This document shows positions 1 through 316 of a stretch of DNA of 316 nucleotides, in pieces (the first letter of the stretch is position 1; every line of letters starts with the position of its first letter). Position numbers and translations under genes: made by a program. The notes beneath the pieces are model-generated. The model was not told where the DNA came from and did no database searches. It saw nothing but the letters and a program-made list of their open reading frames with translations. This stretch comes from Escherichia coli (GTDB taxonomy: Bacteria; Pseudomonadota; Gammaproteobacteria; Enterobacterales; Enterobacteriaceae): assembly GCF_003334385.1 (NCBI RefSeq), contig NZ_QOWN01000206.1; one strand, written 5' to 3'.

Positions 1-316
1 AGATGGTGAAGCAGCTCACCGTTGCCACAGTAAATGGCGGCATGGTTCGGTACCGAAGCACCAAAGCAGCACAGCAGCACATCGCCCGGTTGTGCTGATG
101 ACAACGGCACCTGATACAGCCCTGTGGCCTCCAGATTATCCAGGTACAGGTTCTGGCCGTTGCGCCACCAGTCATCCTCGCGATGAAAATCCGGCATTTC
201 AGTCCCCGCCAGATGATAAGCATCCCGGAACAGCGTGTAACAGTCCGTCACCCCGTGCTCAAAGCGCCGTCCTGTCAGATGTGGCACACAGCGGAATTTG
301 TGAATGTCACCCCGGC
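1..316 (-). CDS. K: Phage tail tip assembly protein K (lambda gpK family; JAB/MPN + NlpC/P60), internal fragment, partial at both ends. In-frame codons occupy + positions 3-314; N-terminal side is toward position 316, C-terminal side toward position 1.
   Basis: Only one of the six frames on this strand is stop-free across the window; the other two minus frames hit stops within the first few codons. I checked the translation codon by codon. It contains the strings IHKFRCVPHLTGRRFEHGVTDCYTLFRDAYHLAG, REDDWWRNGQNLYLDNLEATGLYQVP, QPGDVLLCCFG and VPNHAAIYCGNGELLHH, which I recall as characteristic of lambda gpK and its prophage homologs (from memory, not database-verified). The NlpC/P60 signatures are present: D-C-Y-T-L around the nucleophile Cys, and H-A-A-I-Y-x-G around the catalytic His. 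Codon usage is E. coli-like (CTG Leu dominant, CCG Pro, GGC/GGT Gly). Confidence 0.92.
6..269 (-). other. NlpC/P60 (papain-like cysteine peptidase fold) domain region of the K protein. Putative catalytic Cys codon at + 240-242 (aca, reverse complement tgt), catalytic His codon at + 42-44 (atg, reverse complement cat), third polar residue His at + 6-8 (or the adjacent His at 3-5). Domain boundaries are approximate.
   Basis: Motif order and spacing: Cys in a G-V-T-D-C-Y-T-L context, then His 66 residues later in N-H-A-A-I-Y-C-G, then His 12 residues after that in E-L-L-H-H. This matches the canonical Cys ... His ... (His/Glu/Gln) arrangement of the NlpC/P60 superfamily. Boundaries are inferred from motif positions, not from a profile search. 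Confidence 0.75.

Follow-up and report, generated by a model that had tools for sequence, protein, structure and literature searches.

The product of gene K of phage lambda is needed, together with those of J, I, L, and M, for building the tail tip. Tail assembly requires gpK, the location of which is unknown (PMC12617516). Mass spectrometry of virions did not detect the protein, which is regarded as nonstructural (PMC10721106), and a peptidase domain has been assigned to it by HHpred (PMC7291167). In the account of Iyer, Burroughs, and Aravind, K-family proteins combine a JAB domain with an NlpC/P60 domain and are encoded beside gene I. The product of the latter, gpI, carries a ubiquitin-like beta-grasp domain, and the same authors suggested that K-family peptidases may process gpI (PMC1779556). 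Cell-wall endopeptidases of the NlpC/P60 type (MEROPS C40), such as MepS/Spr of Escherichia coli and LytE, have in common with K the Pfam family and the order of a cysteine, a histidine, and a third polar residue. Unlike these enzymes, the K domain is fused to JAB, belongs to a tail operon, and is not known to act on peptidoglycan.

Here, we analyzed a 316-nucleotide stretch of E. coli DNA (the whole of which is called the window below). The window is almost certainly an internal piece of gene K from a lambda-like prophage of E. coli, with an allele that arose through ordinary divergence and recombination. Lambda K and the loci that match the window exactly occupy the same slot in the M-L-K-I-J operon, and lambda gpK has the same NlpC/P60 motifs as the window (D-C-Y-T-L-F, N-H-A-A-I-Y, and L-L-H-H). 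The two differ in length outside the window, where a 1-nt difference upstream shifts the frame: the prophage protein has 247 aa and the annotated lambda K has 199 aa.

Identity and reading frame of the fragment

The minus strand of the window is open throughout: read from its third base (frame offset 2), it yields a stop-free run of 104 codons. Its translation, RGDIHKFRCVPHLTGRRFEHGVTDCYTLFRDAYHLAGTEMPDFHREDDWWRNGQNLYLDNLEATGLYQVPLSSAQPGDVLLCCFGASVPNHAAIYCGNGELLHH, begins with RGDIHKF and ends with CGNGELLHH. This long frame is restricted to the minus strand, as the plus strand has just three open reading frames (ORFs) of 20 to 31 aa. Neither the start nor the stop codon of K is present in the window. 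The extent of the gene within the window is as follows.

1..316, minus strand: internal fragment of a lambdoid gene K (open frame, identity to lambda, and 316/316 matches in 247-aa K genes)
3-314, minus strand: complete codons of the K fragment, residues 97-200 of the 247-aa protein, corresponding to lambda gpK 49-152

A megablast search of 50,697 phage records matched 263 of them, the best at 94.6% identity. In all 263 records, the aligned gene bore one of three annotations: tail tip assembly protein K, phage tail assembly protein, or C40 family peptidase. Among the PHROGs, the match was to phrog_30, "minor tail protein" (E = 4e-161; E = 5.5e-65 for the 104-aa fragment), and a search of NCBIfam gave nothing above the curated cut-offs. 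When a large protein collection was searched with the 104-aa query, mostly partial K proteins were found among the matches; this search served to describe variation per site and not as a census of alleles.

Comparison with phage lambda

As the lambda reference, we used NC_001416 13000-17000 (L001), in which gene K spans 14276-14875 (NP_040598, 199 aa). The window aligned without gaps to L001 1419-1734, with 278 of 316 nucleotides identical (88.0%) and 38 mismatches, 31 of them at third codon positions. At the protein level, 99 of the 104 residues were identical to lambda gpK (95.2%), leaving 5 differences. By the Nei-Gojobori method, dS was 0.59 and dN was 0.028, giving a dN/dS ratio of 0.047; against two closer alleles, the ratio was 0.10 to 0.15. 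The ratio of 0.047 and the excess of third-position changes (31/38) together indicate that the gene is under purifying selection and that the minus strand holds a functional coding sequence.

The sequence-only reading had taken this DNA to be probably a diverged lambdoid allele and not phage lambda itself. It had proposed an alignment to lambda K as the check, with 100% nucleotide identity as the sign of lambda. We found 88.0% to lambda K and 100% to E. coli prophages (see below), in agreement with that view. An origin from lambda itself, be it a lysogen, a cloning vector, or contamination, would fit a protein that is 95% identical to gpK and collinear with it, but it does not fit 38 differences in 316 nucleotides. 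Moreover, lambda and the Lambdavirus records sit in the 80 to 90% identity band of the phage search, and the exact matches are E. coli prophages. We rejected lambda as the source on the basis of its 88.0% identity and 38 mismatches to NC_001416 and give this explanation no weight.

The five amino acid differences from lambda gpK, taken from the codon alignment and numbered as in the 199-aa lambda protein, are listed here.

306..308, minus strand: T51D, ACG in lambda to GAC in the window (R-G-T-I-H to R-G-D-I-H)
201..203, minus strand: I86T, ATT to ACT (G-I-E-M to G-T-E-M)
96..98, minus strand: A121S, GCG to TCA (S-A-A-Q to S-S-A-Q)
57..59, minus strand: S134A, TCA to GCT (F-G-S-S to F-G-A-S)
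21..23, minus strand: D146N, GAC to AAC (C-G-D-G to C-G-N-G)

The last four had been named, by their motifs, in the sequence-only reading, and each proved real in the codon alignment to NC_001416; T51D was absent from its list. All five sites are polymorphic in the K family, and the predicted triad residues (see below) are unaffected. Site 51 is hypervariable, with D, T, E, A, R, N, and K all occurring. Site 86 is T, I, Y, or C, and threonine is found there also in PhiR12_1, Stx2_14040, and P0003. Site 121 is S, A, R, D, or E, with serine common in other alleles. At site 134, the family is divided between alanine and serine, and asparagine, aspartate, and glycine all occur at site 146.

Among the 38 mismatches to lambda, four follow directly on one another, within window positions 306-311 (GGGGGACGATT in lambda and GGGGTGACATT in the window). 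Two compensating 1-nt indels four bases apart fit this stretch as well as four substitutions do, and threonine is replaced by aspartate either way.

We also asked whether the window conceals anything besides K, on the plus strand or within the coding sequence; candidates would be a small RNA, an ORF running antisense to K, or a promoter inside the gene. Such a feature might be seen in the three short plus-strand ORFs of 20 to 31 aa or in a weak sigma-70-like match, the only one, at 241..213 (minus strand). The latter lies inside K in the sense orientation and consists of GTTACA, a 17-nt spacer, and TATCAT (9 of 12 positions matched); in shuffled sequences, the mean number of such 9/12 sites was 0.0. 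Against a hidden feature, the Rfam search of the window found nothing significant (best E = 0.2, at 11 bits versus a gathering threshold of 40 bits), no terminator-like site is present in the window, and its repeats are of 10 nt only, which is the level expected by chance. The substitutions also follow a single coding frame of the minus strand, in which third codon positions account for 31 of the 38. Taken together, there is hardly any chance of such a feature, and we read the window as coding sequence of K alone.

Upstream of the region covered by the window, the lambda record has a second frame. In this stretch of NC_001416 (L001 1134-1300, record 14133-14300), an ATG at 14133 starts a 76-codon ORF, the first ~45 residues of which (MTQTESAILAHARRCAPAESCGFVVSTPEGERYFPCVNISGEPEA) match the N terminus of the 247-aa prophage K proteins. 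Lambda is one nucleotide shorter here than the prophage allele (GGAGGC-TATTT versus GGAGGCGTATTT). This 1-nt gap puts the 76-codon ORF out of frame with the annotated lambda K (14276-14875, 199 aa), so that the start of the JAB domain, with the conserved glutamate of AESCG, is missing from the annotated gpK. The gap could be a lesion of laboratory lambda, a decoded frameshift, or a long-standing problem of the sequence or its annotation; searching the literature for the upstream frame difference in lambda K gave nothing specific.

Domains and predicted catalytic residues

To place the fragment within the full protein, we used the 247-aa homologue from E. coli STEC17-183, which has the same residues as the window fragment at 97-200. 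In this homologue, PF14464 (Prok-JAB) covers residues 3-105 (E = 9.7e-16) and PF00877 (NLPC_P60) covers residues 111-224 (E = 5.5e-13). The 104-aa fragment itself matched PF00877 over its residues 15-104 (E = 3.7e-10). The K genes that match the window exactly carry the same two Pfam families in precomputed matches. The domains and the predicted active-site residues (247-aa numbering, with lambda numbering in parentheses) fall in the window as follows, with conservation judged in an alignment (A2) of 15 K-family sequences with identities down to 50%.

288..314, minus strand: last nine residues of the Prok-JAB (MPN-type) domain, PF14464, the remainder lying beyond the window
3..272, minus strand: NlpC/P60 (C40) papain-like peptidase domain, PF00877, first 80 of 105 Pfam model positions
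240..242, minus strand: Cys121 (lambda Cys73), codon TGT, predicted catalytic cysteine in the motif D-C-Y-T-L-F, invariant in A2
42..44, minus strand: His187 (lambda His139), codon CAT, predicted catalytic histidine in the motif N-H-A-A-I-Y, invariant in A2
6..8, minus strand: His199 (lambda His151), codon CAC, predicted third triad residue, 12 residues after His187, at least 90% conserved in A2

By analogy with the Cys-His-polar triad of NlpC/P60 peptidases, Cys121, His187, and His199 are the putative catalytic residues. A K-family profile compared with solved NlpC/P60 enzymes gave marginal matches only (E = 0.008 to 0.1). In these weak profile matches, the segment from N-H-A-A-I-Y to L-L-H-H aligned with the catalytic histidine region of the solved enzymes, and His187 aligned with their H-V/A-G/A-I-Y motif. 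The position of His199 fits the profile alignments, and the solved chains vary in the residue found there. When single sequences were searched against solved structures (PDB), the sole match was a JAB-domain protein, 2kks. An AlphaFold2 model of the 247-aa K protein, built from a shallow alignment of 15 sequences, had a mean pLDDT of 38.7, too low for the fold or the geometry of the triad to be read from it.

The NlpC/P60 domain raises the question of a chromosomal cell-wall hydrolase of the MepS/Spr type, which would not be a phage gene at all. The Pfam NLPC_P60 domain is common to cell-wall hydrolases, and the NCBI pipeline product name is merely "C40 family peptidase." However, cell-wall NlpC/P60 enzymes of known structure resemble K only marginally in sequence (E = 0.008 to 0.1), whereas phage K genes are 88 to 95% identical to the window. 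In addition, the gene is invariably flanked by the tail genes L and I in exact and near matches. We discard the cell-wall hydrolase and retain the phage tail gene.

Where the exact sequence occurs

A scan with a 100-nt exact pattern found one IMG/VR prophage contig, UViG_643348545_000006 (L004), which has the whole window (316/316) at positions 3347-3662 and a K ORF encoding 247 aa. The exact 247-aa K protein was present in 36 blocks of a public assembly collection. Seven of the eight loci listed for this protein (L005-L009, L011, and L012) contain the window at 316/316, and the eighth (L010) has one mismatch. In the listed loci, an intact K is flanked by L (PF05100) and I (PF06805) in a lambda-type H-M-L-K-I-J tail operon, and all of them have K upstream of a 1,176-aa J. 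The position between L and I was also found in L004 and in the 99% matches.

The chromosomal surroundings identify the host. One prophage end in L005 adjoins tRNA-Ser(UGA), hyaA, and hyaB, and the host flank of this locus matches E. coli chromosomes at up to 100% identity; the host is therefore E. coli. The tRNA-Ser/hyaAB site is occupied in L005-L007 and L009. The flank of L008 differs and carries ABC-transporter and peptidase M20 genes.

Among complete RefSeq E. coli genomes (n = 5,426), we found no 100% match to the window. The best matches were at 99.1 to 99.4%, and only 18 records reached at least 95% identity. The exact match was likewise absent from a one-genome-per-species scan (100-nt pattern). 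Homologues of K were present in 4,347 of the 5,426 complete genomes, with a median of 2 copies and up to 14, and most of them were 80 to 95% identical to the window. The prophages of E. coli STEC17-183 and 2012EL-2448 are 99.1% identical to the window, and the STEC17-183 protein is the same over the fragment.

Many lambdoid prophages of E. coli are defective, and many partial, truncated, or frameshifted K products are found in protein databases. Since the completeness of the gene is not visible from a 316-bp window alone, the fragment might come from a decaying prophage remnant in which K is a pseudogene. The 104 codons without a stop or frameshift argue against this, as do the dN/dS ratios (0.047 against lambda and 0.10 to 0.15 against closer alleles). 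The full 247-aa ORF and the complete tail operon in every exact-match locus examined point in the same direction. We consider a defective remnant very unlikely and an intact K gene the better reading.

Two further observations concern the window's allele and its relatives. At residue 96 (L004 3346), directly before the first full codon of the window, the exact-match K reads W-W-L-V-S-R-G, and nearly all other aligned K-family members read W-W-L-V-C. The change from cysteine to serine is specific to the window's allele and is located at the JAB/NlpC-P60 junction. In 2012EL-2448, one of the two closest relatives of the window, the tail operon of the prophage includes a gene annotated as porin OmpC (NZ_CP027586.1 308573-309736; L003 7508-8671), with L on one side and an M-like tail gene on the other. 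The porin gene looks like a cargo ("moron") insertion.

Mosaicism within and around the gene

The K alleles of phage PhiR12_1 and of Stx2_14040 (PPompW-type) are 94.3% and 93.4% identical to the window, respectively. Differences from Stx2_14040 are concentrated in a single patch at gene positions 161-239, and the first 160 bases of the gene fragment are identical to this allele.

78..156, minus strand: recombination patch, 79 nt, containing 20 of the 21 mismatches to the Stx2_14040 K allele

Within the patch, the window is the same as the PhiR12_1 allele and lambda-like in protein, reading LEATGLYQVPLSSAQPGDV in lambda, PhiR12_1, and the window versus MAVTGFYRVPLSSAQAGDI in Stx2_14040 and P0003. 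The comparison with PhiR12_1 gives an identical run of 206 nt (window 67-272), with 7 and 11 mismatches on its flanks. None of 200,000 random placements reached the clustering of the Stx2_14040 mismatches, and over the Stx2_14040 and PhiR12_1 comparisons, the observed values were reached by 0 or 1 of 200,000 random placements. The 38 mismatches to lambda are evenly spread, with a longest identical run of 31 nt, as is typical of random placement. Because of this even spread, local differences in constraint do not explain the blocks.

The genes around K are also shuffled. Prophages with the identical 247-aa K protein carry three different sets of head and tail-shaft genes and occupy no fewer than two chromosomal sites. 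The neighboring modules are as follows.

L005: lambda E/D-type head
L010: ClpP-capsid fusion head
L012: HK97-type head, with a different tube and tape measure

In the listed loci, the identical K protein is always accompanied by a similar set of L, I, and J. A reading other than neutral shuffling is that the peptidase domain co-adapted with certain I, J, or L partners and that this shaped both the patch at 78-156 and the five substitutions; we regard such co-adaptation as very unlikely. Ordinary divergence and recombination remain our reading of the allele. The sequence-only reading had expected mosaic variation typical of lambdoid prophages and not remarkable in itself. Such variation is now supported at three scales, namely, the many K copies, the shuffled modules, and the blocks within the window, and the allele turned out to be ordinary and already catalogued.

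Proposed role and significance

The window's allele is already known and annotated, and it is a common, ordinary, recombinant variant of lambdoid K. It almost certainly arose by divergence under purifying selection, together with homologous recombination between the numerous K alleles that E. coli prophages carry. K encodes a two-domain protein, with an N-terminal domain of the Prok-JAB/MPN type and a C-terminal, predicted papain-like cysteine peptidase domain of the NlpC/P60 type. The window encodes the end of JAB and about 80% of NlpC/P60, including the predicted Cys121-His187-His199 triad. During assembly, K would act as a tail-tip peptidase or chaperone, and this assembly-time role is the best-supported mechanism. 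K would be an active peptidase, and its substrate may be a partner in tail assembly, gpI being one candidate proposed in the literature.

To the biochemical role of gpK, that is, the targets of its two peptidase domains and the need for it at the tail tip despite its absence from virions, the fragment adds nothing. Its assignment to a tail gene of an E. coli lambdoid prophage, with contamination by lambda or a vector excluded, is of small importance. If co-adaptation with tail-tip partners were true, K alleles would swap only within compatible tail-tip sets. As it stands, the fragment is a small, clean case of sub-gene mosaicism among prophage K alleles.
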